Assembly: GCA_038869735.1 (NCBI GenBank)
Contig: JAWCQO010000005.1
Span: 7,538 to 71,537, forward strand
From: Candidatus Anstonellales archaeon
GTDB lineage: Archaea; Micrarchaeota; Micrarchaeia; Anstonellales; CG1-02-47-40
DNA: 64,000 nucleotides
Direction of reading: 5' to 3'
Shown here piece after piece: positions 8,098-52,424 of the stretch. Both the position numbers and the translations under genes were made by a program. Under the pieces are notes generated by a model. The model was not told the DNA's origin and ran no database searches. It saw only the letters and a program-made list of their open reading frames with translations. Every line of letters starts with the position of its first letter. Position 1 is the stretch's first letter.

Positions 8098-9624
8098 TTA
8101 CAGGGTTACTCTTCCTTCTTTTATGTTTCGGATTATGGTGCTGTAGACTTCTCCAACTTTTATGCGCTCCTGCTTACCATCGTTTCTGTAACGTATAGTC
8201 ACTGTATCGTCTTTGAGAGTGTCATAATCTATTGTAAGACAATAGGGGATGCCTATCTCATCTGCTCGAGCATATCTACGTCCTATTGAACCGCTCTCAG
8301 TATATATAACGTCCAATCCTTCTGCTCTTAAATTTCCAAGAAGGTCAAGTGCTTTCTCACTAAGGCCGTCTCTCCTCATAAGCGGATAAACTGCGCATGA
8401 GTAAGGAGCAATGACTGGGGGAAAATCAAACCACGCCCAATCTTTTTTGTTTCCTTTTTCTCTGAAGGTGTGTTCGAGTATGCACCAGAATAATCTGTCA
8501 AGCCCCATTGAAGGTTCAACTACATGTGGGATTATCTTCCGTTCGTTTTCCTTTCCTTCTTTTGCTTCGTTTGGATTGTTGTGGTTTACATAAACGCGAA
8601 GATCAACTCCGCTTTTTGAAGAATGAGACGATAGGTCGAAGTCGGTCCGATAGGCATTGCCAATAGTTTCTATGACTCCAAAAGAGGTTTCGATTTCCAG
8701 ATCAAAATTCCCGGCTGAATAATGGGGTGTGTCCTTTTTTCCCATTTTCTTAAAATAAAATTTCTCGTACGGAATGCCAAGAGATGTATAAAATTGCGTT
8801 TGCCTGACCATAAAATATGCCATTATCTCGTTCGGGATTATTCCTTTTCTTACAGCTTCGGCTGCCGACATCTTTTGGATTCTGTCGCTTCCGGCAACCA
8901 TTATTCTTATCTGTTCAGTCTCGACTTGAGAAAATTTCTCTATTGTTGGGCTTCGCGGGTCAAAAAAGTACTCAAGTTCCATCTGTGTAAATTCCCTGAG
9001 GCGCAAGATACCCTTGCGGGGAGAGATTTCGTTTCTGAAACTTTTTCCTATCTGACCGACACAGATTGGAAGCTTTGTTCCATGGTTCCTGAAAATTCTT
9101 GAGAAGTCCAGGAATATTCCCTGGGCGGTTTCTGGTCTGAAGTATCCTGTATTTCCTTCCACTGGACCTATGTTCGTCTTGAACATCAAGTTAAACCAAC
9201 CCTTGCTTTCAAACTCCCCTCCGCAGGCTGGACAGGCGATTCCTTCCTTCTTTAGCAGAGGTAATAGCTCTTCGGGTGAATTCCAGCCTGACGCTTCGAG
9301 CTTCTTTTGATCGAGGAACTCGTCGGCTTTGAATTCGGATGAACAGGCCTTGCATCTGATTAGAGGATCAACAAAATTCTTTGCGTGCCCTGAGGCTTCA
9401 AGCACAACTGAAGGCAATACTGTAGAAGTTTCTATCTCAAAAAAACCCTCGCTTTTTATGAAAAATTTTCTGAAATAGTCCTCTATCTTCTTTTTCATCA
9501 GGCAACCTACAGGTCCGTAGTCATAAAAACCACTGATTGATCCGTAGATTTCGAATGAGGGAATCAAAAAAGAACGTTGGAGCGCTATTTCCATTAGCCG
9601 TTCATACAATTTCTGGTGCTTCAT
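8098..9624 (-). CDS. glyS: Glycyl-tRNA synthetase (archaeal/eukaryotic type)
   Basis: N-terminal FEIYGSISGFYDYGPVGCLMKKKIEDYF; class II motifs; C-terminal anticodon-binding domain. Confidence 0.9.
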   Translation of the reverse strand: MKHQKLYERLMEIALQRSFLIPSFEIYGSISGFYDYGPVGCLMKKKIEDYFRKFFIKSEGFFEIETSTVLPSVVLEASGHAKNFVDPLIRCKACSSEFKADEFLDQKKLEASGWNSPEELLPLLKKEGIACPACGGEFESKGWFNLMFKTNIGPVEGNTGYFRPETAQGIFLDFSRIFRNHGTKLPICVGQIGKSFRNEISPRKGILRLREFTQMELEYFFDPRSPTIEKFSQVETEQIRIMVAGSDRIQKMSAAEAVRKGIIPNEIMAYFMVRQTQFYTSLGIPYEKFYFKKMGKKDTPHYSAGNFDLEIETSFGVIETIGNAYRTDFDLSSHSSKSGVDLRVYVNHNNPNEAKEGKENERKIIPHVVEPSMGLDRLFWCILEHTFREKGNKKDWAWFDFPPVIAPYSCAVYPLMRRDGLSEKALDLLGNLRAEGLDVIYTESGSIGRRYARADEIGIPYCLTIDYDTLKDDTVTIRYRNDGKQERIKVGEVYSTIIRNIKEGRVTL

Positions 9625-9686: not shown

Positions 9687-10478
9687 ATGATTGAAAGAGA
9701 GAAATACCTAGAAATGGCACGCATGTCTATGAAGGAGAAGATTTCTTCCCCTGATCTCCTTATTTCCCAAACCGTTGCAACTATAAGCGAACTTGACAGA
9801 TGCATAAATGTTTTGTATGAGAAATTGGCTGAATGGTACGGACTGTATTTTCCAGAGTTAAAGCTGTCAGATATGCGCACATACTGCCAGGTAGTCATTA
9901 AGTTTGACAGAAAAAAGCAAAACGTCGCTTCTATTCTATCTGTTGTTGGTGAGAAGAACGCAGAAGTAGTAGTCTCTAAAGCCAAGACCTCTGCCGGTGC
10001 AGATTTCTCTGATGATGATTTGGAAGAAGTGCGCAAGCTTGCAAGGCACGTTCTTGAGCTTTATGAGTTGCGTGATGAGATTGAAAAGTATCAGGCTTCT
10101 CTTGCAAGGAAATTCTATCCAAACTTATCTTACTTGCTTGAGCCGGCTCTTGCCGCGAAGATGGTATCTCTTGCAGGCTCACTTAGGAAGCTTGCTCTTC
10201 TTCCTGCAAGTACGATTCAGGTTATGGGTGCAACAAAAGCTTTATTTAAGCATCTAAAAACTGGTTCAAAACCACCAAAGCACGGGGTCATCTTTCAGCA
10301 TCCTTCAATATCAGGAGCGCCAAGAAAGCTTCGCGGAAAAATCGCGCGCGCCCTTGCATCAAAGATAGCCATAGCCGCAAGGGCGGATGCATTCACTGGA
10401 GCGCAAATAGGGAAAAAATTAAAGGAGGAGTTTGAAAGGCGAGTTGGTGAGATAAGAGGAGGGAGCAGACGAGAATGA
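9687..10478 (+). CDS. nop5: Nop5 (Nop56/58-like) box C/D snoRNP protein, short form with coiled-coil and Nop domain
   Basis: LAEWYGLYFPEL and the Nop domain MGATKALFKHL..PKHGVIFQHPSI..APRKLRGKIARALASKIAIAARADAF. Confidence 0.75.
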   Translation: MIEREKYLEMARMSMKEKISSPDLLISQTVATISELDRCINVLYEKLAEWYGLYFPELKLSDMRTYCQVVIKFDRKKQNVASILSVVGEKNAEVVVSKAKTSAGADFSDDDLEEVRKLARHVLELYELRDEIEKYQASLARKFYPNLSYLLEPALAAKMVSLAGSLRKLALLPASTIQVMGATKALFKHLKTGSKPPKHGVIFQHPSISGAPRKLRGKIARALASKIAIAARADAFTGAQIGKKLKEEFERRVGEIRGGSRRE

Positions 10479-10702
10479 AATTCCTTGCACTTTCTGATCT
10501 TCATGCAAGCGAAGAGGCGCTTGATCGCCTTGGTGAGATAAGAGGAGGGAGCAGACGAGAATGAAATTCCTTGCACTTTCTGATCTTCATGCAAGCGAAG
10601 AGGCGCTTGATCGCCTTGGTGAGATAAGAGGAGGGAGCAGACGAGAATGAAATTCCTTGCACTTTCTGATCTTCATGCAAGCGAAGAGGCGCTTGATCGC
10701 CT
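10446..10702 (+). repeat. Perfect tandem triplication of an 86-bp unit spanning the nop5 stop and the downstream gene start
   Basis: The unit ggtgagataagaggagggagcagacgagaatgaaattccttgcactttctgatcttcatgcaagcgaagaggcgcttgatcgcctt recurs at 10446, 10532 and 10618. The third copy diverges after nt 85. Confidence 0.9.
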
Positions 10703-11736: not shown

Positions 11737-11809
11737 GGGGCTGTGTGCTAACTTGGTATGCTTCCAGGTTTGGGACCTGGCGGTCTGAGTTCAAATCTCA
11801 GCAGCCCCA
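11737..11809 (+). tRNA. tRNA-Pro (anticodon UGG), intronless. The D-stem is irregular.
   Basis: Acceptor GGGGCUG/CAGCCCC, anticodon arm CCAGG-UUUGGGA-CCUGG, T-arm CUGAG-UUCAAAU-CUCAG. No CCA is encoded. Confidence 0.55.
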
Positions 11810-12114: not shown

Positions 12115-12256
12115 GGGCTCGTGGCGCAGTGGTAGCGCGCGTGCTTTGCATTTCTGAAAGAGAAATTGATGAGGAACAAAAAAGCACGAGGCCGTGGGTT
12201 CAAAAATGGAAGGGAAAGAGCTTGCTTTCTTCCTTTTGAAATTCCCACCGAGTCCA
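12115..12256 (+). tRNA. tRNA-Ala (UGC) with two introns: canonical 37/38 (about 12151-12182) and T-loop 59/60 (about 12205-12242)
   Basis: Acceptor GGGCUCG/CGAGUCC with a G3:U70 pair, D-arm GCGC-AGUGGUA-GCGC, anticodon stem CGUGC/GCACG with loop UUUGCA[intron]A, T-stem GUGGG/CCCAC interrupted after UUCAAA. Confidence 0.8.
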
Positions 12257-12489: not shown

Positions 12490-13143
12490 TTATCTTGAAT
12501 CTAATTCTTCTTCCATATGGGGTGGCGAGGCAAACTCTACGTGGAGAGGTATTTTTAGTATCTTGGTTGCGATTAGTTTGAGAACTTCAGCTGCAACTAA
12601 TGCGTGCTTGTCCGTACTGGAATTTGTTGATATGACTAAATAGCCGTTGCTTTTCTCCGAGTTTAGATATTTGCCAACGGAGCTATCGTAGAGCACATAT
12701 TGCAGAACATAGAACTTCTTGTTTGGTTTTGAAGTGTAGGCAGAGCTTCCATAAAATGAGAATGCAGGAGCGCCTGGGAGATTTCCTGTTTTTTTCGTGT
12801 GGTCTTGGCTTGCTGAGGAAAGGAAATTTTTTAGGTACTCAATCAGCCACAGCCGGTGGGCTTTGTTATTAAATAAAGTGGTTGAGAGGTCAAAATAGTT
12901 ATATCTGTGAAGGAGAATTGGTGGGGTTTGGATTGTCTGGCGGACAAAGCCGTTATTTTTAAAGTAAGGGAGTGTGTCCAATCTTGTGTAATTTGGACTT
13001 CCCCTATTTTTGATATAAGACAGTGTTTCGTTCTCTATGAGACATTTTGAATTCTGTATATACTTCGTCAAAGGCTTTTTATGTAACGGTTCCTGCTGGT
13101 TTGGAATCTTATCTTGTGTTTTGTTTATATATGCTTTATTCAT
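12490..13143 (-). CDS. Hypothetical protein (217 aa)
   Basis: ORF only, Asn/Lys/Tyr-rich; no family call. Confidence 0.3.
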   Translation of the reverse strand: MNKAYINKTQDKIPNQQEPLHKKPLTKYIQNSKCLIENETLSYIKNRGSPNYTRLDTLPYFKNNGFVRQTIQTPPILLHRYNYFDLSTTLFNNKAHRLWLIEYLKNFLSSASQDHTKKTGNLPGAPAFSFYGSSAYTSKPNKKFYVLQYVLYDSSVGKYLNSEKSNGYLVISTNSSTDKHALVAAEVLKLIATKILKIPLHVEFASPPHMEEELDSR

Positions 13144-13424: not shown

Positions 13425-16400
13425 GGGTAAGCAATCGCATTTTTGACGCTAAGGGCGGCGGATGAAGAATGCGAGCGCGTCGTGCGGTTGCGCGAGCGCT
13501 TTATGAGGATGAAGGGAAAACCGTAAGATTCACAAGAGAGTATGGATATGATATGCTGCTTTAGGCTTGGCAGGGGATAGCTTGGCTTGGGCAATATATC
13601 CGCCGTGGCAAGCAGCGAAATGCCCGTGGTAGGCGCAGGCTGCCTGTAATCACGGGGTTGCGGATTTACGCGGGGAATTAAAACATTCTAGTACCCGCAG
13701 GAAAAGAAAAAAATTTGATTTGGCTAGTAAGGGCGACTGAACGCCAAACAGGGCGACCCGAATAGTCCGTCGCGAGGCGGAAAAGATGTGGGACCGCAAA
13801 ATCTCTCTCTGTGGAGAAGAAACCTCTGGAAAGTGGTGCCATAGAGGGTGAAAGCCCCGTATTCGAACCGGAGAGAGACGAGGTAAAAAGAGTAGTGTCC
13901 ATTGGTGATTGGGCACAAATATGGCAGAATCAACTGCCAACCCTAAATATACCCCAAGACCGATAGCGTACAAGTAGCGCGAGCGAAAGCTGAAAAGGAC
14001 CCCGGGAGGGGTGTGAAAAGAGCTTGAAACTGTCAAGCCACAGTTTGATGCGGCCAAAAAGCGGTTTATGTCCTTCAAAGCAACTGCTGGAGACGGCAGA
14101 AGCGAGAAGGAAGTAGCATGGTTGCATCGTCCTTCTATAAGCAAGGGCCAGGGAGTTTTCCTCAACGGCGAGGCGAAAGCCGGAGCGAAAGCGAGTACTA
14201 ACGTGCGACAAGTCGTTGGGGAAAGACCCGAAGCCGATGTGAGCTATACGTGGGCAGGGCGAAGCCGGCCTGACGGCTGGTGAAGGCCCGCAACCAGTAC
14301 TAGTATATTCTGTTTGGGTGACCTGCGTATAGGGGTGATAGTCCAGTCGAACTCGGCAATAGCGGGCTCCTCCTGAAGTATATCTCAGTATAGCGGCGCC
14401 GGAGCATGTCATACAGGGTAGAGCACTGATTAGGAGGAATGGGCCCGAGAGGGCTCGCCTTCTTGTCAAACTCCGAATCTGTATGAAGCGTAGATGGTGC
14501 TAGTAGGCTTCTCTCGGGTAAGCCGAGAGGACTGTACGGGAACAACCGTTACCGCGGTTAAGGCCCCCAAATCTTGGCTAAGTGCAACTTAAAAGAGTCT
14601 CTGCTCAAAAACAGCTGGGAGGTAGGCTTAGAAGCAGCCATCCTTCAAACAACGCGTAATAGCGGACCAGCCGAGAGCGCAGATTCTGAAAATGCTCGGG
14701 GCTATAAGCCAAGTGCCGATACCGCGGAGTGGCGCATTATGTAGATGCGCGCAATCTGGTAAGGAGGCGAACCGGTTGGGCAGAAGCGCGGGCGTAAGCT
14801 CGCGTGGACCGGCTGGTTATGATAATCCTGGTATTAGTAGCAGCATATCCAGGTGAGAATCCTGGACGCCGGAAGCACGCGGGTTCCTTGGCGATGCTCG
14901 TCAGCCAAGGGTAAGGCGATCCTAAGCGTCGCGCTAATCGCAAAGACGCGAAAGGGAAACCGGTTAAGATTCCGGTTCCAGACGGATAGGTGCGGTAACG
15001 CGAGGGTGTCTTTCTGACGCTTTGGGGTAGGCTCAGTGGAGGAGACTCCATTTAAGCAGGATAGTTCTCTGGAGTCTAGTTGTTAGGAGAAGGAGAACAA
15101 ACTGCGAAGGCCACACGGTTGAGCTGACCCCTGGAGCCCGTGAAAAGGAAAGACACAGCGATTCCGTCTGCTCGTACCTAGAACCAGTACAGGTGGTGCT
15201 GGCAGAAAAAGCCAAGGCGTGGCAGGAGAACTCTCGTAAGGGAACTTGGCAAATTAGTGGCGTAACTTCGGGATAAGCCATGCCTGCGGTTCTCTAAAAA
15301 GGAACTGCAGGTCTCAGTGACAAGGGGAGACCGACTGTTTACCAAAAACACAGGTCATCGCTGAGCCGAAAGGCTGAGTACAATGGCCGATGCCTGCTCA
15401 CTACTGGTACGTCAAACTCCGGTCCAACGGAGCGAAGCGCCAGCAAAGAGCGGGGGTAACTCTGACCCTCTTAAGGTAGCGTAATACCTCGCCGCTTAAT
15501 TGGTGGCTTGCATGAAGGGCATAACGAGTCTCCCACTGTCCCTACGAGGGACCTGGTGAACTTACTACTCTGTGAATATGCAGAGGACTTCCAGGGGGAA
15601 ACGAAGACCCCGTGGAGCTTTACTATAGCCTGTTGTTGGAATGCGGTGATGGTCGCGGAGCGTAAATGGGAGCCGTTAAGCCGTACCTTTTGGGGTGCGG
15701 ATAGGCGCCGTTGTAACACCATTCGGCTGTTATTGCATTTCTTACCGGAAGGGACAGCGACAGGTGGATAGTTTGGCTGGGGCGGTACATCCTCGATAAG
15801 GAAACAAGGATGCCCAATGTTCGGCTTAGGTGCGTCAGAAATGCACCGTTAAGGGACAAGGACAAATGCCGGACTGACTGTATCCCTAAAAGCATCGGAT
15901 GCAGAGGCGAAAGCCGGGCCTAACGAACCTTGGTATCCCTTTTGATGAGGGTCCAAGCTGTCAGACAAGCTACCCCGGGGGTAACAGGCTCGTCGCGGGC
16001 GAGAGACGCCTATCTTTAAGTTTTTAAAAAAGAAGGTAGGTGCTCAAATACCCATCGACCCCGCGGTTTGGTACATCGCTGTCGGCCTAGGTCATCCTGG
16101 CGGTGCAGGAGCCGCCAATGGTTGGGTTGTTCATCCATTAAAGACCTACACGAGCTGGGTTCAGAACGTCGCGAGACAGTTCGGTAGTATCTCCTGGGAG
16201 TGCAAATCCGCCTGAGAGGAAGAACCCTTAAGTACGAGAGGAACTTGGGTTCGAAGCCTCTGGTGTACCGGTTGTGAAAAGCAGATGCCGGGCAGCTACG
16301 CTTTATGGGATAAGACCTGAAAGCATCTAAGGTCGAAGCTCATCTCAAAACGAGGCGGTTTGGCGGTCGTAGCAGACGACTTTGATAGGAGGGAGGTGTA

Positions 16401-16460
16401 AGAGCCAAGCGCAAGCGAGGCTTTCAGCCTGCCCCTTACTAAAAGCCAGATGTATATCAT
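13425..16460 (+). rRNA. 23S: 23S (large-subunit) rRNA; ends approximate to +/-50 nt
   Basis: 5'-domain matches include ggcggatgaagaatgcgagcg, gggaattaaaacattctagtacccgcaggaaaagaaa and ctggaaagtggtgccatagagggtgaaagccccgta. The peptidyl-transferase region has ctgggttcagaacgtcgcgagacagttcggt. The sarcin-ricin loop agtacgagaggaac is at about 16223. Confidence 0.85.
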
Positions 16461-16685
16461 ATCCATTCCCTCTTCTGGAGCTTGCGGTTTTCTCAAAATC
16501 CTTAAAAACACTTTTTTCTGAAGTTCTGGTGCTTGAATGTGTTTAGACTGGCTCTTTCTTGCGCTATCTAACTTCTAATCTTTGCTTTCTATAGTTGTTG
16601 CTGCCTATAGGGTAATAATATTGCCACAATATTGAAAACGAAGGATATAGGCTTCCTTGCGCTATCTGCCTCTAATCTTTGCTAT

Positions 16686-19600
16686 CTAAGTTTCCTCCTC
16701 GCATTTTAGCTGTTGATTTGACACAACGTTTGCAAAGACGCATGACTTGGAGATGTCAAGTCCGGGTTTACATGCTGGAACGTCTCTTCCTCTGTTTCCA
16801 TATATGATTGGGGTTACGTCTCTCCCTGCTACTTCCATTTTTGCATAGGTATGGTATACCTTTTCGTCAGGCTGAATCTGCCCGTCGAGATTGCTGTCCT
16901 CTTCGCTTGCTATGCAACACCTCATGGATGGAGGAAGTGACGCAAGATACTCAATGTACAGGAAGGATTCGTCTTGTTCTGTTTCTGGGTTGTTATAAGA
17001 CATATTCTGAATGGAGGGTGGTTCTTTTACCGTGCCGTCAGTATAAGTACACTTAACAAAATCTTGAGATTCGTCCCCATCGTAAGACGGATTTGTACAG
17101 AGTCTCTCGCTGCATACCTCTCTTCTTGCGCATAGAAGTGGGCATTTATAGCCGTAAGGCCAGTCATCTCCTGCTGGAATATCACACATAGAGCCATCTG
17201 CACAAATATTTGAAACGCCGGCTGTCTGCTCTGACTTTGTTCTTCTTTCACATGTGCACTTCTGGCTATCTGCAACCAATCTAACATAAGTCGTTTTTGT
17301 TGATAAGTCAACGGTGAGCCTTGAGGCGTTTTGAATCACGCAAAATGGCTGCTCCTCTGGAGAGAGAGTCTCATTAAAACCATAAGGTTGGAGTTCATTT
17401 CTTGGCTCATGGATTCCTATAATTCCACTGGAGGATAAGTTTGACGAGAGTTTTATTAGCTCCTGAATCAGTCGCGCCCTGTCTATATCTTGCCAGCTGT
17501 CACACTGAGGAGCCTCTGTTGCCCTTTCTCCAAAGTATATGAGGGATGGTAAGTTGAAATCCATAAGAAGCTTTCTTGAAGCGTTTGTCAAGTTTGTTGC
17601 CATCAGGAGCGCTTGCTCTTCCGGGGACAGCGCGCAGAACGACGGATTTCCTCCTGAATAATAAGCCATTTCGGGAATATAGGGCATTATGATTATCAGG
17701 TCAAGCTCTTTTAAAAATTCAGTGTCTATCGTACCTGGCGAGGGCGTGTGCACTACTCTTTTGTAAGTTATCCCGTTAATTGTTTGTACGTTTCCGTCTG
17801 CCTGCTCATTTAGGAGCAAGGCATAAGAAATTGCATTAACGTCTTGCATTGGAATAGCCTCGCCATCTAAAGTCGGTGAAACGCCTCTAAGGGCAGGAAT
17901 TATGACTGCAGTTAGGGCGTGAGGAAACTTGCGTTTGTAGTATATGACTTTGTTTTTTATGTCTTCTATCTTAGAGGTGTTTCGCAGAAGGTACTGTTGT
18001 CCGTTGTTGTTTAGAATTGTAACCTCTGAGAGGTTAATAGTGTGAAGAGCAAGTATTGTTGTTCCTTGGTCCTTTAGGTATTTTGCAAGATTTGCTGGAA
18101 GAAATGTGTCGAATTTGTTTTGTGGTGAGAGTCTACAGGAGTAATAGGAGTAACATTCTGAAGGATTGTGTTGCTCGCACCACCCGTTTGATGCACAGGC
18201 ACTACCGGTCCATTCACATGATGGAGAATCTTCGCATCGAAGCATGGTTTTGTCTTCGCAGTCGCCTATACAGGAAAAAGAAGTTACATTTGCTAAATAC
18301 GGAAGCGTGTTTGGAACAACAAGAATTGGAAGAGTGGAGGCTTTTTGATATTTTTGTATTTTTACATGGAGGTAGTTTGGGTCTGGCAAAAACGAGGGAC
18401 CTTGGGCAGTCATTGTTGGATGGGGTGATTGGTTGGGTTGTTCGTCTTGGACATACACTGTCACACCCTTTGCGTCTGTGTCGTTGTATGACTTAAAGGG
18501 AGAGGGAGGCGCACAGTCATAACAATATCCATTGGAAGCTGTGCATTCCCCATAGCTCTCGCTTTGAGTAAGGCAAACTGGAGTGTTTTGCTCGGTAGGC
18601 GAAATTTGTTGCACTGCACTGGTAGAAAGTGAGCAGGGCTCGCACCCTCCCCAAGAGTAGATGAGAAGTTGGCCTTCGCGCTCTGGGTCGGAAAGACAGT
18701 CTCCAAAAAGGATTTTTCCAGCATCTTGGCCTTCTCCTTGGTGTGGAGTGATAAGCACAAGGGTTTGGGTTCTTGTTGGTTCCCAGAAAAGTTCATGGGG
18801 CCACCAATCTAAACTGCCTCCCTCATGATCAAAGAATTTAAGCTCGAAAATAGTGAATGTGCCGTATCTTATGTGAAAATCAGTTCCAAGCCTCATGTTG
18901 CAGGCGCTAAGAAGTGGTATTCTTTGTTTTATTTCTTGTTCTGTGTAGTGGGAGTTGTACAGGACAGTATAGGCACGAGAAGTTTCATTAGAAGTCGTTG
19001 TTTTGGACATGTCTATCTCTAGCGGGCCTTCGAGTCTGTTGTTCTCGTACCAGTATCTGCAATTATAATGGTTATCGCCTATCTGACCAACTCCTTGTTG
19101 ATTTTCACCACTGCCTACTGAAATTGAGTGACAGATATACAGCGTATCAGACCACCTATCATTAGGGAATAGAGTTCTTTCATCTGGAATTGGTGGAATT
19201 GCTCTTTCAGGCTGTCCTTCGTATGGGCAGAAGTCTTGATTTCCAAGGCCTTGATAACCTCGGGAGTCTCCGTCTCTAGAAAATGAATAAGTATTGCCGT
19301 CAATTGTAGCAGTACAGCGAAAGGTTTGGGAACTGCCGCTGTTAGAAAAGTTGCCTCCTGTGCAAACATAACATGCTGAACCGACCGATGTATCTCGCGG
19401 ATGAATAGTAGCTCTCATAGGAAGTTTTTCGTTAGCAGAAAGAGCGTTTACCTTGCACTTTGTCTTTCCAAAGCTATCGATGTAGCAGCCGCAGTCAACG
19501 GGCGTTCCGTCTTTAAGAATGCATTTGTTGGTTGGGAGTATATTCTTGTTGCAGATGCCAGAGTAGCACTCCCCGTTTGATTGGCAAAGCGCACTTGCGC

Positions 19601-20981
19601 CCGGAATTATGTTTAGGATTTTTGAGTTGCGATTATCACACAGTTCTGGCCCTACCTGCTCTTCGTTGTCAAGCCTGTTGTTGGAATTTTCATCCAAGTA
19701 GCAAACGCAGCCTGGTTCTGGGCAGTAGCCGTTTGCTATTTCAAATTCGTATTGTTCTTTTATTTTGGAGATATAATAATCGGTGTCTATTTTTTTTGTA
19801 GTCTCTGTTGCGTAAAGCGTGCCATTGGGCCTTGAAATATTTAATTTTTCTTCTGTTGTTACATATTGACTTCTTGCTAAGAATGGTAGATATACTCTCT
19901 CATCAGCCTGTCCTGTTGGGAGAGAGCATGAACGCTGTGGGTAGCAATTATCCATGCACGCTCCTTTGCTTGAGTACTGCTTTCCTGTGCTGGCACAAGT
20001 CCACTTTATTCTCTTTACTATGGATATGTTAAACTCCTTTGTCCAGTGGCACTCGCCGCCGTCGCCGTATTTATAGTCCTCGCATGGTGTTCCCCTTAGA
20101 AGCTCATCTATGTTTGAATAACAGTTTGCTGTTATAAGTACACCCGAAGGAGAATTTACGGGGTGGGCTTCGCCCCATTTAGTTGTATACCCGATAAGGT
20201 AGCCTTTGAGTGGCCCTGATGCAAACTGCCGCTCAACGTAATTTAGATATCTGTCTTTTTGGTATTTGTTATAATCACTAAAGCCGCAGAAGACATCTGA
20301 GATGGGAGTATAAAGGCGCGCCTCTTCGAATGTTGAGAAATTGTTTGCGACTCCAAAGCGGAATGTGTTTATGAACGCTGTCGGAGACGACTTAAATTCC
20401 CTATTTGTCTCTTTGTTGAGTGGCTTGAAAGAACAGAAAGTTCCAAACAGCCCCTCCGGAACATCTGTAAAATCAAAAGAAGAAGTAGAGAAGGCGGTTG
20501 GGTTTAGGTCTTGTGGTTGGGGTAGTGCTCGGTCTCGTGCATTAAGGTAGTCAGACAAACTCATAGATATGCGTGGGTTATAGGAGGTCCTGCCGCAAAT
20601 CATTGCCGCGCAGTCTGGCGCTATACAGGGGTCAGATGGAATTTGGCCGCAAACGGGGATTTTGCTGTCTACACCATTGACACAGCCTGGTGGACACCAT
20701 TGAGGATTTCCATTTGCATCTGCTGGACAGATAGAAGGGTCGCAGTAATATGTGCAGTTTAGCCTTTCATTTTCGGGACCTAAATCTGATATGCTTGGGC
20801 ATTCAAGCCTCTGGCTTCCATTGAGGCTTAGAACATCTCTACATTGAAAGCTTGAGGTGTAGTTACCTGAAGCGCAACAAGAAGTGTATGCGGTTTGAGC
20901 AACGCATCCGACAAGAAAAAGGAGAGGGGATATCACTAAAATGAACGAGCCGATTGATGCCGAAACTGAAATCTTTTTCAT
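16686..20981 (-). CDS. Giant (1431 aa) secreted cysteine-rich protein. It is the last gene of the seven-gene surface operon. It has an N-terminal signal peptide and no C-terminal anchor.
   Basis: Start MKKISVSASIGSFILVISPLLFLVGCVAQ. Cys-rich throughout with many N-x-S/T sites. Only 4 nt separate it from the upstream gene. Confidence 0.75.
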   Translation of the reverse strand: MKKISVSASIGSFILVISPLLFLVGCVAQTAYTSCCASGNYTSSFQCRDVLSLNGSQRLECPSISDLGPENERLNCTYYCDPSICPADANGNPQWCPPGCVNGVDSKIPVCGQIPSDPCIAPDCAAMICGRTSYNPRISMSLSDYLNARDRALPQPQDLNPTAFSTSSFDFTDVPEGLFGTFCSFKPLNKETNREFKSSPTAFINTFRFGVANNFSTFEEARLYTPISDVFCGFSDYNKYQKDRYLNYVERQFASGPLKGYLIGYTTKWGEAHPVNSPSGVLITANCYSNIDELLRGTPCEDYKYGDGGECHWTKEFNISIVKRIKWTCASTGKQYSSKGACMDNCYPQRSCSLPTGQADERVYLPFLARSQYVTTEEKLNISRPNGTLYATETTKKIDTDYYISKIKEQYEFEIANGYCPEPGCVCYLDENSNNRLDNEEQVGPELCDNRNSKILNIIPGASALCQSNGECYSGICNKNILPTNKCILKDGTPVDCGCYIDSFGKTKCKVNALSANEKLPMRATIHPRDTSVGSACYVCTGGNFSNSGSSQTFRCTATIDGNTYSFSRDGDSRGYQGLGNQDFCPYEGQPERAIPPIPDERTLFPNDRWSDTLYICHSISVGSGENQQGVGQIGDNHYNCRYWYENNRLEGPLEIDMSKTTTSNETSRAYTVLYNSHYTEQEIKQRIPLLSACNMRLGTDFHIRYGTFTIFELKFFDHEGGSLDWWPHELFWEPTRTQTLVLITPHQGEGQDAGKILFGDCLSDPEREGQLLIYSWGGCEPCSLSTSAVQQISPTEQNTPVCLTQSESYGECTASNGYCYDCAPPSPFKSYNDTDAKGVTVYVQDEQPNQSPHPTMTAQGPSFLPDPNYLHVKIQKYQKASTLPILVVPNTLPYLANVTSFSCIGDCEDKTMLRCEDSPSCEWTGSACASNGWCEQHNPSECYSYYSCRLSPQNKFDTFLPANLAKYLKDQGTTILALHTINLSEVTILNNNGQQYLLRNTSKIEDIKNKVIYYKRKFPHALTAVIIPALRGVSPTLDGEAIPMQDVNAISYALLLNEQADGNVQTINGITYKRVVHTPSPGTIDTEFLKELDLIIIMPYIPEMAYYSGGNPSFCALSPEEQALLMATNLTNASRKLLMDFNLPSLIYFGERATEAPQCDSWQDIDRARLIQELIKLSSNLSSSGIIGIHEPRNELQPYGFNETLSPEEQPFCVIQNASRLTVDLSTKTTYVRLVADSQKCTCERRTKSEQTAGVSNICADGSMCDIPAGDDWPYGYKCPLLCARREVCSERLCTNPSYDGDESQDFVKCTYTDGTVKEPPSIQNMSYNNPETEQDESFLYIEYLASLPPSMRCCIASEEDSNLDGQIQPDEKVYHTYAKMEVAGRDVTPIIYGNRGRDVPACKPGLDISKSCVFANVVSNQQLKCEEET

Positions 20982-20985
20982 GTAC

Positions 20986-22026
20986 TCATATCACCTTTGA
21001 TATAGCTGAAGTAAGTTCTCCTAATTCCCCTCCAAGGAGTGGTGTTATTATGCGCACAAAAATAAGAGTTAGAGCAAAAGCAATAAATGGATAGTACATT
21101 ATACCGATGGTAAGGGTTGCAAGCTCTGATGAGAAGAGTTCAAATGTACTTCTGCTTATGTCAACGTTCTGGGTTATTGTTGAAAGTGTAACTGATGCGC
21201 CAGAAAAACCGGCATAGCATGCATTGAACACCTCTGTTTTTGGAGTGACGTCTATATCGCCGGATCCGTGAGCATATGCTGGATCCATAACGACATAGAA
21301 TGCAGGGAGTATAAAATAAAAGCCCATCGCAACGGCTATAAGAAGGCCTCCGGCCCCTCTTGTAAATTGAAATATTCGAAGGAGGATGCCAAGAGGAAGA
21401 AAAACTGACAGCATATTCTTCTCTATATAATCGAGGAAGATGTATTGCGCGTGTAGATGGATAAGGAGTGGAGTTATTTTTGAGCCAAGAAGATGGGCGC
21501 GCTCAACATCTCCACGCAAGAACCAGTCACCGCAGTAAACCTGAATGCCTACAAAGCTCAAACAAAATGCAGCTTGCTTTTCGGTTTCTTTGTTTTGTTC
21601 AAAAATTCTCTGATACATTTTGTCAAGAAAGTTTATTTTTTCCTGTATTCTGCACTTTGCAAAGGATATTGGGTTTCCGATTATAAGTCCGTTTTGGTCG
21701 ATTGAAAATGTTATCGGCTGTCCTCCACACTCTATTGCGGTATCTTGGCCTATTATTATTGCAATGGTGATAAATGCGGCTAGGTTGACAAGATTTATAA
21801 GCATGACTATGAGGATTGATGATGCAGATGCCTGAAGCATCTCTGAAATGGCCCAGCGCTTTATATTTTCAAGAGATAATGACCTTCCAATGACGTATAC
21901 TATTGTAAAGAAGAAAATGCATAGTGCTACTGCTGAAAGCGCAACGGCATTCCACCCAAGGCCTTCCCAGACGGAGATGAGGCCTGTGGTTGAGCCATAA
22001 GATTGGAGGATGTATGCGGGCTCCAT
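20986..22026 (-). CDS. Paralog P6 (346 aa) of the new 5-TM membrane family; minimal form with about 105-aa extracellular loop
   Basis: Core motif LPLGILLRIFQFTRGAGGLLIAVAMGFYFILP; C-terminal tail LLGGELGELTSAISKVI. Confidence 0.7.
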   Translation of the reverse strand: MEPAYILQSYGSTTGLISVWEGLGWNAVALSAVALCIFFFTIVYVIGRSLSLENIKRWAISEMLQASASSILIVMLINLVNLAAFITIAIIIGQDTAIECGGQPITFSIDQNGLIIGNPISFAKCRIQEKINFLDKMYQRIFEQNKETEKQAAFCLSFVGIQVYCGDWFLRGDVERAHLLGSKITPLLIHLHAQYIFLDYIEKNMLSVFLPLGILLRIFQFTRGAGGLLIAVAMGFYFILPAFYVVMDPAYAHGSGDIDVTPKTEVFNACYAGFSGASVTLSTITQNVDISRSTFELFSSELATLTIGIMYYPFIAFALTLIFVRIITPLLGGELGELTSAISKVI

Positions 22027-23037
22027 TCATATCAACCTCGATAATCTTCCTGCATCAACCTCTTGTCCTAACAATCCTGAAACCTGCGATATAGCCGCAA
22101 CAACAACAATAAGATTGATGGAAGTTATAAAGACTGAACCAAAGAATATTAGAGTTGCATTTTTTATAAGGAAGATAACGTCTGTACCTTCTTGGATTGT
22201 AGAGGAGTAAATCGCTGGAAAGAAAAGGCCCTCCAACATCAAGAGGAACGGAAAGAAGATGTAAAGCGCGACTCCAAGGCCTATCAGGGAACCTCCAAAC
22301 ATGCGCATAAATGGTATGCTGCGAAGTATGATACCCCAAACAAGGCAGAAGATGAGAAAGGAGTTAGTATAATCGGTGCCTACAAGAAGAATGTTATAGA
22401 CGCCTATCTGCGCAAGGATGGTAGCAAGGGATATTAGAGACGAGTTCATAAACAAAGTGAGAACTGCGTTGTGTGCCTGCACTCCGGATTCTGGATTTAA
22501 AGAAACTCCAGAACCCCCAAGGATGCAGAGGGTTTTGCAGTTCCATAGTGTGAGAGTCAATTTCCTTTCATTTAGGCCTATAATTTCGCGTAGATTATAA
22601 AACGTAGAATAGGAGATTGTTTGCATATAGACTAAAAACTTTTTTGCTGCAGTGTAGACGTTGTCTGACTCCTGAAAATCTACATTGGCTTGAGATTCAA
22701 TAGGTATCTGCGGAAGGTTGGTGAGCGTTACTGCGCTTCCTACCTCAATAGAGCAGAAGAGCGTCAAAATTTGGAGTATTAGTGCAATTATAATGGCAGT
22801 GCTGATAAGTTGCATAACTTCATCTTTTGACCAGGCCACTAGCCGAGGATAGCTGAGAAACTCTCCAGCAGCATATGTTATTGCTATCAGTCCTGCAAGT
22901 GCCGCAAATCCCGCGGTTGCGTAAGAGATTGCAGGCGAAAATAGATTTTGTGGCTGCTCACATATCGCTTGTTGGGAAAATGCAAACCCTCCGAGGGCAA
23001 GAACAAAAAATAATAGTGTGTTGTTTGTTCTTATCAT
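22027..23037 (-). CDS. Paralog P5 (about 336 aa). The likely start is at 23037 (MIRTNNTLLFF...), overlapping the P4 stop as ATGA; the longest ORF reaches 23097.
   Basis: Signal-like N-terminus; core motif ILRSIPFMRMFGGSLIGLGVALYIFFP; tail LLGQEVDAGRLSRLI. Confidence 0.7.
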   Translation of the reverse strand: MIRTNNTLLFFVLALGGFAFSQQAICEQPQNLFSPAISYATAGFAALAGLIAITYAAGEFLSYPRLVAWSKDEVMQLISTAIIIALILQILTLFCSIEVGSAVTLTNLPQIPIESQANVDFQESDNVYTAAKKFLVYMQTISYSTFYNLREIIGLNERKLTLTLWNCKTLCILGGSGVSLNPESGVQAHNAVLTLFMNSSLISLATILAQIGVYNILLVGTDYTNSFLIFCLVWGIILRSIPFMRMFGGSLIGLGVALYIFFPFLLMLEGLFFPAIYSSTIQEGTDVIFLIKNATLIFFGSVFITSINLIVVVAAISQVSGLLGQEVDAGRLSRLI

Positions 23038-24317
23038 TGCGACAACCTCACAAGGGTCGATATGTCTATTTGAGAGCCAAACATTGCTGCAAGCCACTGG
23101 ATAAACAGAAGCGTTATTGTTAGGTTCAGCGCAGTCGCAAATATGGAGCGCAGATATACTTGAAAGATGAGTGGTTCAAAGTTGTAAATGCTTTTGTTAT
23201 CGCCTATTTCTGTTTGGCCGATTAATGGTTCGATGAATTTTTCGCGTGTGCTTGCGTAGGAAAAATCAAATGGGTCGCATGTTTGAGTGCGAATCGTATT
23301 TGCAAGATTAGAATTTTGGTTGCTTCTGTAAGCTTGCAAGTACTCATTAGAGTCTAAAATTTCTCCAAAAAGAATTTTTTCTGAAAAAAGGAAAGTAAGC
23401 GGCAGGACAAGGTATAGCCCAGCTGCAAATGCTATTAACGTTCCACCTACTTTTCGCGTGAAGTTGAAAGTGCGAAGGAAGATTCCTATAGGAAGCAGGA
23501 TAGAGAAAGCATAATTCTTTGCAAAGCTCATGATAAGGAAAATTGCCTGAAAATCTGTAACAGCAAGAGACAATGATGTTGTCGCATGGGTGATGGAAGG
23601 GCGCATTGCATTTATGGCGGAACATGTGATTATTGAATACCCAACACCTAATATTGAGCAATAGCCGGATTTTGAGCCTTCTTGTCCCGATTTCTTTGAA
23701 ATTTCAAGATAGTTTGAGAGTAGGTCTTCGTAATTGCTCTTTACATCTTCAAGGGTTGCAAACGCGTAGTCATAAAATGTCCCCTCTACTTCTGCCCCAC
23801 CAGCTAAAGACTTAAATGCTGGGAGGAGAGAGGCGTCTAGATAATAAGCCATGCTAGTAAGAGAAGCTAGAATCAGTGCTGTAAAGATAAGTTGGGTCAG
23901 CTCATCTTTAGTATAGGTTTTTAGTTCAGTTATATTGAAGACGGAGCTACCCATATAAAGTAGCGATATTAATGAAGCGGAGATAAGAAAAGCTATGAGT
24001 ACTAGAGGAAGCCATTGTGACTGGCAACGGCAGTTAGAGCATGAGGCAGTTAAAGGACATCCGCCTCTTAGTTCTACTGCAGAAACTTCGCACTCCTCGC
24101 CTTGGTCAAGAACTCCGTTTCCACAGATTGGAAGCTGAACGTTGACGTTTTCTGCAATACATTCGCCGTTTTGGCAGATATAACCTTCTTGACATGGAGG
24201 GGAGCAGAGTGCAGCGTTTCCTCCTTCTCCAGCGGAGAAAAGAACAGCTGAGGCTAGGATAATGAAAAAGAGCTCAAGTATCAACGCCTTTTGTTGCTTC
24301 ATTTTGCTCCACATCAC
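23034..24317 (-). CDS. Paralog P4 (427 aa). It has a signal peptide, a small Cys-rich N-terminal ectodomain with one CGNGVLDQGEEC repeat, and the 5-TM core.
   Basis: ICGNGVLDQGEECEV. Core FLRTFNFTRKVGGTLIAFAAGLYLVLP. Tail AAMFGSQIDISTLVRLSQ. Confidence 0.7.
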   Translation of the reverse strand: MMWSKMKQQKALILELFFIILASAVLFSAGEGGNAALCSPPCQEGYICQNGECIAENVNVQLPICGNGVLDQGEECEVSAVELRGGCPLTASCSNCRCQSQWLPLVLIAFLISASLISLLYMGSSVFNITELKTYTKDELTQLIFTALILASLTSMAYYLDASLLPAFKSLAGGAEVEGTFYDYAFATLEDVKSNYEDLLSNYLEISKKSGQEGSKSGYCSILGVGYSIITCSAINAMRPSITHATTSLSLAVTDFQAIFLIMSFAKNYAFSILLPIGIFLRTFNFTRKVGGTLIAFAAGLYLVLPLTFLFSEKILFGEILDSNEYLQAYRSNQNSNLANTIRTQTCDPFDFSYASTREKFIEPLIGQTEIGDNKSIYNFEPLIFQVYLRSIFATALNLTITLLFIQWLAAMFGSQIDISTLVRLSQ

Positions 24318-26614
24318 AAAAATCTTGATATTCCCGGAAGTTCTATATCTCCTCCGAATGTTTGGGAAAAAACTCTAATGAATGCTATCAAGACAACTAT
24401 ATTAAAGAGTGGAAGAACGTAAGCAGGAATTGCAAGCACACCTACATTTTTTGTGTCACTCATGGTTGTTTTTGCTCCTGTCTGGCTGGATATAAAGCCT
24501 GCAGGGGTAAAATCGCGTGAAGCGGCGGTTGGGAGATTGCAAACTTCTGCACAATTTGTCCGTATTGGGGGTATTGTGGTGCAGTCATCATCACATTTGA
24601 GGCACGAAGTGCAAAGTGATGGCGGTGAGTCTGTTGTGAAATTGCTTTTGCATTCCTTGTTGCAATATGGTTCAAGGCAACTTGCGGGACAGTTTATGTC
24701 TCCAGCGTCTGCAACTCTGCACCTTTTTGGGCATGCAGAACATGTTCCGTCGGGTTGTGGTTGTATTGAGCCGTAGTTTTGACGAGTTGGAAAGTTTGCA
24801 CAGTTTTGAGAGGGAGAGGGGATCTGAATTCCACAATAAGCTCGACAGGCAACACAGGAAGGGTTGGTCCTACAATGTAATTGGAAGTAGTTGTCAGCGT
24901 CCTCATTGTCTTGGATGTTGGCGATGCGGCATTCGCGCTGGCAGCTTCCGCAAAGGGTAAGGCAGTCAAGTAGTTTTGGGTCTGGAATCCCTATCCTGCA
25001 GTTTGGTTCGTTTTCGCTTCTTCCCATTGGGCAATGTTCTTCTGTACATTCCTCGCATGCTTTCCAGACAGATTCTCCGTTTTCCTGCACTGGAAAGTCT
25101 GATGGCTTTGGAATTCTCCAATAGCCATCGACGGGGTCGTTTGGGTCATCATCTGACTTATCATCCGGATAAAGTGGATTGAAGTAATAAACACGACAAA
25201 AGTCTGGGCATAGTGTGCACTTGCCTTGGCATTCTGGCGACATATAACTGACTGAATTTATTATTGCACATCCAGATATATAGCAGCCATCTTGAGAATC
25301 TTCTATTCTATTTGCTCTGGAGCAAGTATTTTCACCAAATAACTGTTTGATTTCCTCCGGGGGGTCGGGTTTTTCGTCATCAGAAAAACATGTTGTCCTC
25401 TCGCGATAAGGGACATATGCTTGGTTGTCTGAATTCAGCTTACTTTTTCCTCCAACCTTACACTCGTCCGGGCAAGTGGAGCAAACGGCCCGTACATCAA
25501 CGTCCTTAACTATTTGACCTGCGTGTTCAGAGTCTTCTGCTATGAGATCTGATTTGGTGCAAGAAGGATTTTGGATAGGATAGGGAATTTCTCTACATAT
25601 GGAGGGACATGAGAGGATTACGGTTTGGCCAGTTATAGTCTCACCTTCTTGATTTACAACCATTTGATTTGTCAGTTGTCTCTTGCAACTTCCAAGCTCT
25701 TCGCAAGTGTTTATTTTCGGTGGGTTGAAAGTGCATTCTCCAGGACAATAATCTGGAGGTGGGGAGACCATCTGGTCTCCAAACACTGCAACTTTTAGAG
25801 TAAACCAAGAAAAGACGTAGAGCATTGGCCAGACTAAAAGCAGGGATATTCCGATTGCAAGTAAAAGCCCTCCTAATCTGCGCGAAAAGAAAAATGTGCG
25901 GAGGATAACTCCATAAAAAATGAGCACAGATGAAAGAGATGCTGACTGCGGGTTATTTGTTGAAGCCAGATTGGATAGAAAGCTTTTTTGGGTGGCAAGC
26001 GAAGAGTATATCCCTGAGAGAACATCGAAGTTGTATGAATATCTTTCTGTGTACATGGAATAGCCGGCATTTTTTCCTGAATAATAAGCGGCCCAGAGTG
26101 TGTAGTACGTGTTGGTAGACACTCCTTCTCGCTCAGAGGATTTTTTTGCATTTTCAAACGCATCTATGAGATTTGATTTTAGCGTTGAGTTTGTAATTGA
26201 AAGAAGCGAATCTAAGTAGCACAAACCAAGCGAGATTACATACGGCTGATTCTGGATGGGTTGGCAGGCAAATTGGCCTGCTGTTATTGATAGTAGAAAC
26301 GAAGAAAGGAACGAGAAAATAGCGATAAGAGAGATTATTATCAGAGCTGAAGCAAAGACTTGTGAGAGTTCTGTATTTGCCCAGACTTTTATTTCTGGGA
26401 TGTTTAGCCCTATCCCAACAATATATGCAATAGAAACGATGGATAAGGAGATGGCCAGCGCGATTATTGATGCCGATTGCCAATTTCCATTTCCAAGAAA
26501 TTGATTATATGTAAGATCTATGGGGGATAGCTGTAGGAGTGGCTGTGGGTACGAGAAAGTAGAGAATAGCAAAAGAACGAGGAGGATCTGCGTCTTTTTT
26601 AATTTTGTATTCAT
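24314..26614 (-). CDS. Paralog P3 (766 aa). The 5-TM core carries an about 420-aa Cys-rich ectodomain inserted between TM4 and TM5 rather than at the N-terminus.
   Basis: Core VILRTFFFSRRLGGLLLAIGISLLLVWP is followed by a long Cys-rich region. Final TM and tail: FIRVFSQTFGGDIELPGISRFL. Confidence 0.7.
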   Translation of the reverse strand: MNTKLKKTQILLVLLLFSTFSYPQPLLQLSPIDLTYNQFLGNGNWQSASIIALAISLSIVSIAYIVGIGLNIPEIKVWANTELSQVFASALIIISLIAIFSFLSSFLLSITAGQFACQPIQNQPYVISLGLCYLDSLLSITNSTLKSNLIDAFENAKKSSEREGVSTNTYYTLWAAYYSGKNAGYSMYTERYSYNFDVLSGIYSSLATQKSFLSNLASTNNPQSASLSSVLIFYGVILRTFFFSRRLGGLLLAIGISLLLVWPMLYVFSWFTLKVAVFGDQMVSPPPDYCPGECTFNPPKINTCEELGSCKRQLTNQMVVNQEGETITGQTVILSCPSICREIPYPIQNPSCTKSDLIAEDSEHAGQIVKDVDVRAVCSTCPDECKVGGKSKLNSDNQAYVPYRERTTCFSDDEKPDPPEEIKQLFGENTCSRANRIEDSQDGCYISGCAIINSVSYMSPECQGKCTLCPDFCRVYYFNPLYPDDKSDDDPNDPVDGYWRIPKPSDFPVQENGESVWKACEECTEEHCPMGRSENEPNCRIGIPDPKLLDCLTLCGSCQRECRIANIQDNEDADNYFQLHCRTNPSCVACRAYCGIQIPSPSQNCANFPTRQNYGSIQPQPDGTCSACPKRCRVADAGDINCPASCLEPYCNKECKSNFTTDSPPSLCTSCLKCDDDCTTIPPIRTNCAEVCNLPTAASRDFTPAGFISSQTGAKTTMSDTKNVGVLAIPAYVLPLFNIVVLIAFIRVFSQTFGGDIELPGISRFL

Positions 26615-31192: not shown

Positions 31193-32173
31193 GTGAGAAA
31201 TTTTCTGATGCGGATTGGAGATATTCTAATTGATGGATGGCTCGTTCTTGCCCCTATGGCTGGAAAAACAGATATTGCGTTTAGGCATCTGTGCAAAGAA
31301 TTAGGGGCTTCATTGGTATTTTGTGAATTTGCAAGTGCCGAGGGCATATTGAGAAATGAGGAATACGCTCTTCGAGTGATGAGAACTGAAGAATCAGAGC
31401 GTCCGGTCGGAGTGCAAATATTTGGGGAAGGTGCTAAAAGGATGGGAGAGGCTTGTAGAAAAATAAATGAGCTGAAAGAGCACGGGAGAATCTGCCCTGA
31501 CATTCTTGACATAAATTTTGGATGTCCTGGAAAAAATGTTATGAGGTGTGGTGCTGGAGCTGCCCTTCTTAAAAATAAAGAAGAGATTAAGAGAATACTT
31601 AACGCATGTATTGAAAATTCAAAAATACCAATCAGTGCAAAAATTAGAATAGACGGAGGGGTAGAAAGAACTATTGAAATTGCAAAGGAAATTGAGGATT
31701 GTGGTGCTTTTGCTCTGACCGTTCATGCAAGGACTATCGCTGGTGGAAAGAAAAGAAATTCGGTGCAGTGGGAGGTTATAAAAAGGGTGAAGGAGAGCGT
31801 GAATATTCAAGTTATAGGTAATGGGGGAGTCATTAGCTGGAAAGATGCAATTCGTATGCGCAACTTGACTGGATGCGATGCTGTAATGGTTGCGCGGGGT
31901 GCGTTGTATGATCCATTTATATTTCTGAAAGCTTCATCCGTCAAAATAACGAGCAAAGAAATTGAGAATCCTGAAAGGGTAAAGTATGAGAGGATGAGCG
32001 CTTTGAAAAGATATGTTGAACTTTCACAAAAGTTTGGGATTTTGAACCTGCAAAGTGTCAGGTCGCATGCACTAGATTTTTGCTTTGGGCTTGAGAGAGC
32101 TAGAGAAATGCGTGAGAAGATATCAAAGGCAGGCGATATAGATGATATTGTCAGGGTTTTTGGGGAAATTTAA
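31193..32173 (+). CDS. dus: tRNA-dihydrouridine synthase (Dus family, TIM barrel). The start is probably the ATG at 31208.
   Basis: LAPMAGKTD, NFGCPGKNVMRCGAGAALLKN, and a catalytic-Cys-containing loop. Confidence 0.8.
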   Translation: MRNFLMRIGDILIDGWLVLAPMAGKTDIAFRHLCKELGASLVFCEFASAEGILRNEEYALRVMRTEESERPVGVQIFGEGAKRMGEACRKINELKEHGRICPDILDINFGCPGKNVMRCGAGAALLKNKEEIKRILNACIENSKIPISAKIRIDGGVERTIEIAKEIEDCGAFALTVHARTIAGGKKRNSVQWEVIKRVKESVNIQVIGNGGVISWKDAIRMRNLTGCDAVMVARGALYDPFIFLKASSVKITSKEIENPERVKYERMSALKRYVELSQKFGILNLQSVRSHALDFCFGLERAREMREKISKAGDIDDIVRVFGEI

Positions 32174-52390: not shown

Positions 52391-52424
52391 GATTTGAGAT
52401 AGGTTGTTTTAGTATAAAAAGAAG

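Follow-up and report, generated by a model that had tools for sequence, protein, structure and literature searches.

In this study, we describe a tRNA-Ala(UGC) gene of a member of the order Anstonellales (Micrarchaeota, DPANN), represented by a hot-spring-type MAG, that is predicted to be interrupted by two introns. We put the probability at about 90% that positions 12115-12256 hold a functional tRNA-Ala(UGC) gene with two protein-spliced bulge-helix-bulge (BHB) introns, one of 32 nt at position 37/38 in the anticodon loop and one of 38 nt at position 59/60 in the T-loop. The two-intron gene is genuine, but its arrangement is already documented for Micrarchaeota. All positions refer to the window, i.e. 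the whole stretch of 64,000 nucleotides that was analyzed, unless another contig is named (Table 1).

Table 1. Positions of the tRNA-Ala(UGC) gene, its parts and the other RNA features.
Feature	Position	Strand	Basis or content
tRNA-Ala(UGC) gene, two introns	12115-12256	+	sequence read
tRNA-Ala exon 1	12115-12150	+	acceptor 5' strand, D-arm, anticodon stem 5' strand, loop nt 32-37
tRNA-Ala intron 1, 32 nt, 37/38	12151-12182	+	strict hBHBh'; constraint fold and geometry scan
tRNA-Ala exon 2	12183-12204	+	nt 38, anticodon stem 3' strand, variable loop AGGCC, T-stem GUGGG, T-loop nt 54-59 (UUCAAA)
tRNA-Ala intron 2, 38 nt, T-loop 59/60	12205-12242	+	relaxed on intron side; constraint fold and geometry scan
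tRNA-Ala exon 3	12243-12256	+	T-loop nt 60 (U), T-stem CCCAC, acceptor CGAGUCC, A73
tRNA-Pro(UGG), no intron	11737-11809	+	
Archaeal LSU rRNA, complete	13546-16462	+	Rfam
LSU processing stem, 55 nt, 78%-complementary	13500-13554 / 16454-16508		inverted repeat
tRNA-Arg(UCG), two introns	34309-34455	+	sub-threshold Rfam, 25.2 bits (5' part only); sequence; geometry
tRNA-Glu(UUC), 15-nt canonical BHB intron	52424-52514	-	ARAGORN
Initiator-type tRNA-Met(CAU), 32-nt 59/60 intron at 56924-56955	56863-56969	+	acceptor/D-arm/T-arm scanner; geometry
tRNA-Met(CAU), 71-nt canonical intron	L155 4782-4927	-	precedes SSU

Results

The spliced tRNA-Ala(UGC) is a complete cloverleaf

The exons were assigned by reading the sequence, by in-silico splicing followed by ARAGORN, and by a consensus fold. 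The acceptor stem is GGGCUCG/CGAGUCC and the D-arm GCGC-AGUGGUA-GCGC. The anticodon stem CGUGC/GCACG encloses UUUGCA, the 32-nt insert and A, with the anticodon UGC at 12147-12149, and the T-stem GUGGG/CCCAC encloses UUCAAA, the 38-nt insert and U. The alanine identity set is complete, consisting of G3 (12117):U70 (12253), A73 (12256) and the NGC-type anticodon UGC, and the conserved tRNA nucleotides U8, A14, G18G19, U33, G53-U54-U55-C56-A57-A58 and C61 are all present. CCA is not encoded in the gene, the next bases being TCT.

Excision of 12151-12182 and 12205-12242 leaves a 72-nt product, which ARAGORN called tRNA-Ala(tgc) with a perfect cloverleaf. Moreover, the cloverleaf is the minimum free energy (MFE) structure of the spliced RNA in single-sequence folding (-33.6 kcal/mol, z = -2.4). 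The unspliced 142-nt RNA already folds into a cloverleaf, in which the anticodon arm and the T arm are lengthened (-51.0 kcal/mol, z = -2.6), and it was called neither by ARAGORN at default settings nor by Rfam at the gathering threshold. A permissive Rfam search recovered only the 5' two-thirds of the gene (12115-12202; 22.4 bits, E = 0.016); the alignment places a 34-nt insertion in the anticodon loop and is wrong at its 3' end. The G+C content is 65% in the exons, 28% and 37% in the two introns, and 41.6% in the genome. No second tRNA-Ala gene was seen within the 64-kb window.

The preliminary description had proposed a tRNA-Ala with G3:U70 at this place, and re-reading the sequence gave exactly the same coordinates. 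The G3:U70 pair was found to be invariant in all five tRNA-Ala sequences that were aligned, and the fold expected after in-silico removal of both introns is backed by ARAGORN, by single-sequence folding and by the consensus fold with intron-less tRNA-Ala genes.

Both exon-intron junctions lie in BHB geometry

The archaeal splicing endonuclease acts on two 3-nt bulges that lie on opposite strands with 4 bp between them, and cuts after the second bulge nucleotide (PMC4090602, PMC3239211). For an intron inserted after nt 6 of a 7-nt loop on a 5-bp stem, loop nt 1-4 must pair with intron positions n-5 to n-2, and both inserts show this pairing.

In intron 1, the exon helix h (12140-12144/12184-12188) is followed by a central helix H formed by UUUG (12145-12148) and CAAA (12177-12180), by the bulges CA-U (12149-12151) and AA-A (12181-12183; the hyphen marks the junction), and by an intron-side helix h' (12152-12155/12173-12176). 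This geometry (h=5, H=4, h'=4) matches the canonical archaeal strict hBHBh' intron at 37/38 throughout (3-4-3, with helices of 5 bp on the exon side and 4 bp on the intron side), with no notable difference.

In intron 2, helix h is the T-stem itself (12194-12198/12244-12248), and the central helix pairs UUCA (12199-12202) with UGAA (12237-12240). The 3' bulge AU-U (12241-12243) is stacked on the intact T-stem. Inward of the 5' bulge AA-A (12203-12205) there is one A:U pair and a small internal loop, followed by a 9-bp hairpin (h=5, H=4, h'=1). The BHB motif, which the preliminary description had suggested looking for at both junctions, is strict at 37/38 and relaxed on the 5' (intron) side at 59/60. 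The two inserts that had been placed after position 37 and after UUCAAA were recovered at these sites with the same lengths, and the separate hairpin noticed in the T-loop insert (GGAAGGGAAAG / CUUUCUUCC, 12208-12233) appears in the MFE fold of the precursor.

Each insert was shuffled, and the recurrence of the observed 4-bp central helix together with the intron-side helix gave P = 0.0013 for intron 1 and P = 0.009 for intron 2, indicating that the geometry of the inserts is beyond chance. In the unconstrained MFE structure of the precursor, the 5' splice site of intron 2 is buried in a continuous 7-bp helix, and forcing both BHBs costs 7.5 kcal/mol (-43.5 versus -51.0). Judged by these predicted energies, the cost is a real weakness of a strict reading. 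Such behaviour is nevertheless typical of relaxed motifs as described in lineages with broad-specificity endonucleases.

Homologous genes keep the exons and the junction geometry

A metagenome scan with a query for a tRNA-Ala(UGC) whose anticodon arm is interrupted by 14-44 nt gave nine matches. Two are true homologues (L137 and L139), and the other seven are chance matches in GC-rich coding DNA. In L137 and L139, as in the window, an archaeal LSU rRNA directly follows the tRNA-Ala gene on the same strand, and both genes were called tRNA-Ala by ARAGORN after splicing. The LSU rRNAs are only 70-74% identical to that of the window, and the mature tRNA-Ala is 93-99% identical among the three (94% for L137 and 99% for L139 versus the window), with a compensatory change from U50:A64 to C50:G64 in L137.

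The anticodon-loop inserts of L137 and L139 are 21 and 31 nt long and show h5/H4 with h' of at least 2. The T-loop intron of L137 has the same length and position as that of the window (38 nt at 59/60; h5/H4/h'1) and an unrelated sequence. In L139 (Ga0066640_10032376; tRNA-Ala on the minus strand, ~1222-1358), the 34-nt T-loop intron fits a BHB only at 56/57, which leaves the mature loop UUCAAAU; in the geometric model, this placement suggests intron sliding or an independent insertion. The central helix is 4/4 in all three genes, and the identity between their T-loop introns (0.47-0.55) equals the shuffled expectation of 0.51. Kept exons, kept junction geometry and drifting intron sequence are what spliced introns should show and what a decaying pseudogene would not.

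We also built a consensus fold from the three spliced tRNA-Ala sequences and the intron-less tRNA-Ala(CGC) of a Micrarchaeota MAG (L066) and of a Thermoplasmata MAG (L023). The alignment of these five has zero gaps at both junctions, and 5 pairs are kept via double substitutions. The archaeal intron-less comparators were taken from a scan of the genome collection with the middle exon (GCACGAGGYCGYGGGTTCRAA); the matches listed were bacterial and archaeal tRNA-Thr and tRNA-Ala(CGC) genes sharing the anticodon stem, with no two-intron relatives among them. A scan of viral contigs returned phage coding sequence only.

The source genome was placed through a 508-aa class II synthetase (8098-9624), a glycine-tRNA ligase (GlyRS), which is identical in the MAGs GCA_038870215.1, GCA_038849675.1 and GCA_038868935.1. 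NCBI assigns this protein to a Candidatus Anstonellales archaeon. Beyond these, the closest relatives share 71-73% identity with it, and a large group of Micrarchaeota proteins comes next at 54-60%. The loci around GlyRS homologues at 56-71% identity contain no tRNA-Ala, so the synteny of tRNA-Ala and GlyRS does not extend beyond the species. Six further sequences (L001-L006) belong to the same strain (at least 99.9% identical) and carry no comparative information.

Introns in other tRNA genes and recurrence of the 59/60 site

Of the six tRNA genes in the 64-kb window, those for Ala, Arg and initiator Met have an intron at 59/60, and the sequences of these three introns are mutually unrelated. 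The tRNA-Arg gene carries a strict 27-nt intron at 37/38 (34346-34372) and a 47-nt intron at 59/60 (34395-34441) with a central helix of 3/4, and its spliced product was called tRNA-Arg by ARAGORN. The initiator tRNA-Met has A1:U72, three G:C pairs in the anticodon stem and a 4/4 central helix at 59/60. The unspliced gene was missed by ARAGORN and Rfam, permissive mode included. ARAGORN did call tRNA-Met for 56863-56969 after in-silico splicing, but on a product whose junction was shifted by 2 nt (mature loop UUCAAGU). The 4-nt anticodon (tcaa) that ARAGORN gives at 52424-52514 is a software artefact, the gene being the tRNA-Glu(UUC) of Table 1. The tRNA-Pro and tRNA-Lys genes of the window are intron-less.

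A related contig provides a presence/absence pair for tRNA-Pro. The tRNA-Pro(UGG) of L127 (6938-7051, minus strand) contains a 42-nt 59/60 insert after UUCAAA that is absent from its orthologue in the window. The exons are identical at 69/73 positions, with the insert as the sole gap; GlyRS is 71% identical and the neighbouring genes are the same. The pair delimits a 59/60 intron independently and, at the level of sequence, points to a recent intron gain or loss between these two relatives.

Several side observations were made on these genes. The tRNA-Arg 59/60 intron ends in UGACAA-U, as does the L127 tRNA-Pro intron. A tRNA-Pro(UGG) of a more distant member of the Micrarchaeota (L132, 4700-4888, plus strand) has an anticodon-loop intron of ~116 nt with a 23-nt direct repeat (two copies of CTGCTACCTCCTCAAGAGGTAGC). 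In the D-stem of the window tRNA-Pro, just two Watson-Crick pairs (G11:C24 and C12:G23) stand between U10·U25 and U13·U22, which recalls the tRNA-Pro of ARMAN-2, reportedly a molecule with a single Watson-Crick pair in its D-arm. Genes for aTrm56 (55559-56137), Dus (31193-32173) and a KsgA-type rRNA dimethylase (34971-35744) lie among the tRNA genes, all on the plus strand. Dus is a dihydrouridine synthase, and aTrm56 is the 2'-O-methyltransferase of T-loop C56, acting on the loop that bears the 59/60 introns.

The tRNA-Ala gene lies next to an unlinked LSU rRNA

The spacer between tRNA-Ala and LSU is 1,289 nt (1.3 kb), and immediately upstream of tRNA-Ala there are protein genes and tRNA-Pro. 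The SSU rRNA lies ~18 kb from LSU on the opposite strand (L155 2830-4324, minus strand), and the rRNA genes are therefore unlinked. The archaeal 16S-tRNA-Ala-23S spacer contains the same isoacceptor, on the same strand and directly upstream of 23S. Unlike in that operon, the SSU here is distant and inverted, and the spacer from tRNA to LSU is long. From its sequence and position, the gene appears to be the classical spacer tRNA-Ala of the rRNA operon, left beside 23S when the operon broke up.

A scan of the LSU processing stem revealed no strict or canonical BHB in register, only symmetric internal loops. A 217-aa ORF between tRNA-Ala and LSU (12490-13143, minus strand) has no Pfam match and is not homologous to the 180-aa ORF found at the same place in L139, so both are probably spurious. 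The SSU and tRNA-Met of L155 lie ~4.5-6 kb left of the window start, and the intron of this tRNA-Met has GAUGAG and GUGA motifs that are vaguely C/D-box-like.

Two other features of the neighbourhood were noted. Upstream of the tRNA-Ala gene, a perfect tandem repeat of 86 bp x 3 (10444-10702) contains the last part of the Nop5 gene region and the beginning of a metallophosphoesterase gene, both of which are thereby duplicated. Two sister assemblies (L001 and L002) have 2 copies, and the triple repeat would accordingly be an assembly artefact or a very recent duplication. Just downstream of LSU, seven consecutive large ORFs (346-1431 aa) occupy 16686-31162 on the minus strand; they gave no significant Pfam match except one weak DUF4215, and their products may be lineage-specific surface proteins.

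Homologues of the ARMAN-2 splicing endonuclease

Neither EndA nor RtcB was found in the window or in the ~9 kb beyond its left end. An M. jannaschii EndA sequence was used as bait and matched 1A79 at E = 8e-111. Most of the ARMAN-2 EndA sequence was then recovered from PDB 4FZ2 and used as query. The search yielded 1,415 homologues at E <= 1e-10, which are widespread in Micrarchaeota. Nearly all of the best 120 of these 1,415 are 380-395 aa long (range 368-406) and many are labelled Micrarchaeota; PF01974 is present in all 120, mostly together with PF02778, and none of the 120 carries an Anstonellales label. Endonucleases that can cut non-canonical or relaxed BHBs are of the (αβ)2 or ε2 type or a loop-bearing α4. 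Since no EndA was tied to the source MAG or to Anstonellales, we infer the ε2 identity of the enzyme here from what is known at the level of the phylum.

Discussion

Disrupted tRNA genes have been characterized in ARMAN-2 (Ca. Micrarchaeum acidiphilum, Micrarchaeota), in which 56% of the tRNA genes are disrupted (Fujishima et al. 2011, PMC3239211). Its pre-tRNA-Cys(GCA) is interrupted at 59/60 by an intron of the relaxed hBH type, its pre-tRNA-Pro(GGG) has introns at 53/54 and 59/60, and its three-unit ε2 EndA is of broad specificity and cuts strict as well as relaxed motifs (PMC3239211). A mini-helix with the 59/60 hBH has served as a substrate for cleavage, and Mancarchaeum, too, is reported to have ε2 enzymes (PMC5829648). 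Moreover, 59/60 and 56/57 are both published non-canonical intron sites of archaea (PMC4090602).

The disrupted tRNAs of ARMAN-2 and those described here share the phylum, the 59/60 site, a one-sided relaxed BHB, the occurrence of more than one intron per tRNA and their omission by default tRNA finders. They differ in that the tRNA here is tRNA-Ala(UGC), apparently of the rRNA-spacer type, with introns at 37/38 and 59/60 rather than two in the T-loop, and in that the order here is Anstonellales, from a neutral hot-spring-type MAG, whereas ARMAN-2 belongs to the acid-mine Micrarchaeales. Multi-intron tRNAs of Thermoproteales/Crenarchaeota were reportedly described by Sugahara et al. in 2008. 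These tRNAs are similar in having non-canonical BHB sites, including 56/57 and 59/60 and often combined with 37/38, and a fast intron turnover (PMC4090602). However, they occur in an unrelated superphylum (TACK) with an (αβ)2 heterotetrameric endonuclease, whereas the known enzyme of Micrarchaeota is ε2. The preliminary description had regarded T-loop introns in multi-intron tRNAs as a lineage marker, and this agrees with the Micrarchaeota source of the DNA and with the 59/60 and two-intron tRNAs published for ARMAN-2 (PMC3239211).

The 37/38 site of the anticodon arm and the 59/60 site of the T-arm are geometrically equivalent. At each site, the 5-bp stem of the arm is lengthened by a 4-bp helix between loop nt 1-4 and the four intron bases before the last two, and the bulges consist of loop nt 5-6 plus the first intron base on one strand and of loop nt 7 with the two final intron bases on the other. 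In our model, EndA, here most likely of the three-unit ε2 type with the broad specificity known from ARMAN-2, would cut the tRNA-Ala precursor in both bulges, and an RtcB-type ligase would then join the exons. CCA would be added post-transcriptionally, and AlaRS would recognise G3:U70 and A73.

It seems unlikely that the T-loop intron of the same gene is cut by the same mechanism in another register (e.g. 56/57, 58/59 or 60/61). The exact cut position is ambiguous at the sequence level because of the A-run (UUCAAAAA), which together with the 3' UGAAAUU permits the mature loops UUCAAAU, UUCAAUU or UUCAAAA. In addition, the MFE fold gives no clear 5' bulge, and the best BHB of the orthologous L139 intron is the one at 56/57. 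However, a 4/4 central helix on an intact T-stem (h=5) arises from 59/60 alone, and this register yields UUCAAAU, which is also the T-loop seen in intron-less tRNA-Ala genes and in L139 after splicing. For a cut at 56/57, the window sequence would have to form three G:U pairs and accommodate a U·U mismatch, and the T-loop introns of L137, initiator tRNA-Met and tRNA-Arg all fit 59/60, which remains our preferred position.

The failure of standard tools to call the gene might be taken to mean that it is a decaying pseudogene, broken by two unrelated insertions that are never removed. This reading is extremely improbable given that the exons show no damage at all and retain the full set of identity elements and tertiary-pair nucleotides, and that they are conserved at 93-99% between genomes whose LSU rRNAs are 70-74% identical, with fully diverged inserts. 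Furthermore, both inserts fall precisely in BHB geometry, the same architecture occurs in three other tRNAs of the lineage, the initiator tRNA included, and no other tRNA-Ala was seen in the 64-kb window. Another question is whether intron 1 has a second role. Introns of tRNA-Trp that contain C/D boxes exist in other archaea (Euryarchaeota), and intron 1 contains CUGA followed 9 nt on by UGAUGA (CUGA-N9-UGAUGA, 12154-12172), a D'/C'-like and K-loop-like arrangement that could bind L7Ae and guide or chaperone modification. It is overlapped by weak snoRNA-family matches with scores of 16 and 13.7 bits and E-values of 3.7-6, and Nop5 and L7Ae genes are present in the window. Nevertheless, these Rfam scores are far below the gathering thresholds (35-55 bits), the terminal C (RUGAUGA) and D (CUGA) boxes and a guide of suitable spacing (10-12 nt) are absent, and the introns of L137 and L139 are simple hairpins that lack the motif. 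We consider a functional K-loop or half C/D-box very unlikely and have rejected it, as the motif is not conserved and probably arose by chance. Thus, we retain the reading of a functional tRNA-Ala(UGC) gene with two BHB introns.

The 59/60 site may be an actively turning-over hotspot of intron insertion in Anstonellales-type Micrarchaeota, with ongoing gain, loss or sliding of BHB introns. The occurrence of 59/60 introns in three out of six tRNA genes, the unrelated sequences of these introns, the presence/absence pair of tRNA-Pro, and the position of the tRNA-Ala T-loop intron at 59/60 in two lineages and at 56/57 in a third would point to such gain, loss or sliding. We regard this proposal as tentative and rather doubtful at present, a hint and not a demonstration. 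If it is true, the lineage would offer a natural setting in which to study the movement of protein-spliced introns, which is still an open question.

Taken together, our findings extend what is published for ARMAN-2, namely 59/60 introns and tRNAs with several introns, to another order of Micrarchaeota and to the rRNA-associated tRNA-Ala, whose two-intron architecture endures over deep divergence while the intron sequences are completely replaced. The main value of the finding is practical and concerns tRNAs that are missed in the annotation of DPANN MAGs. At standard thresholds, ARAGORN and Rfam overlook half of the tRNA genes of the window (Ala, Arg and initiator Met) owing to their T-loop introns. 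Unless intron-aware searches are used, the tRNA complement of DPANN MAGs is therefore probably underestimated, as are quality scores based on tRNA counts.
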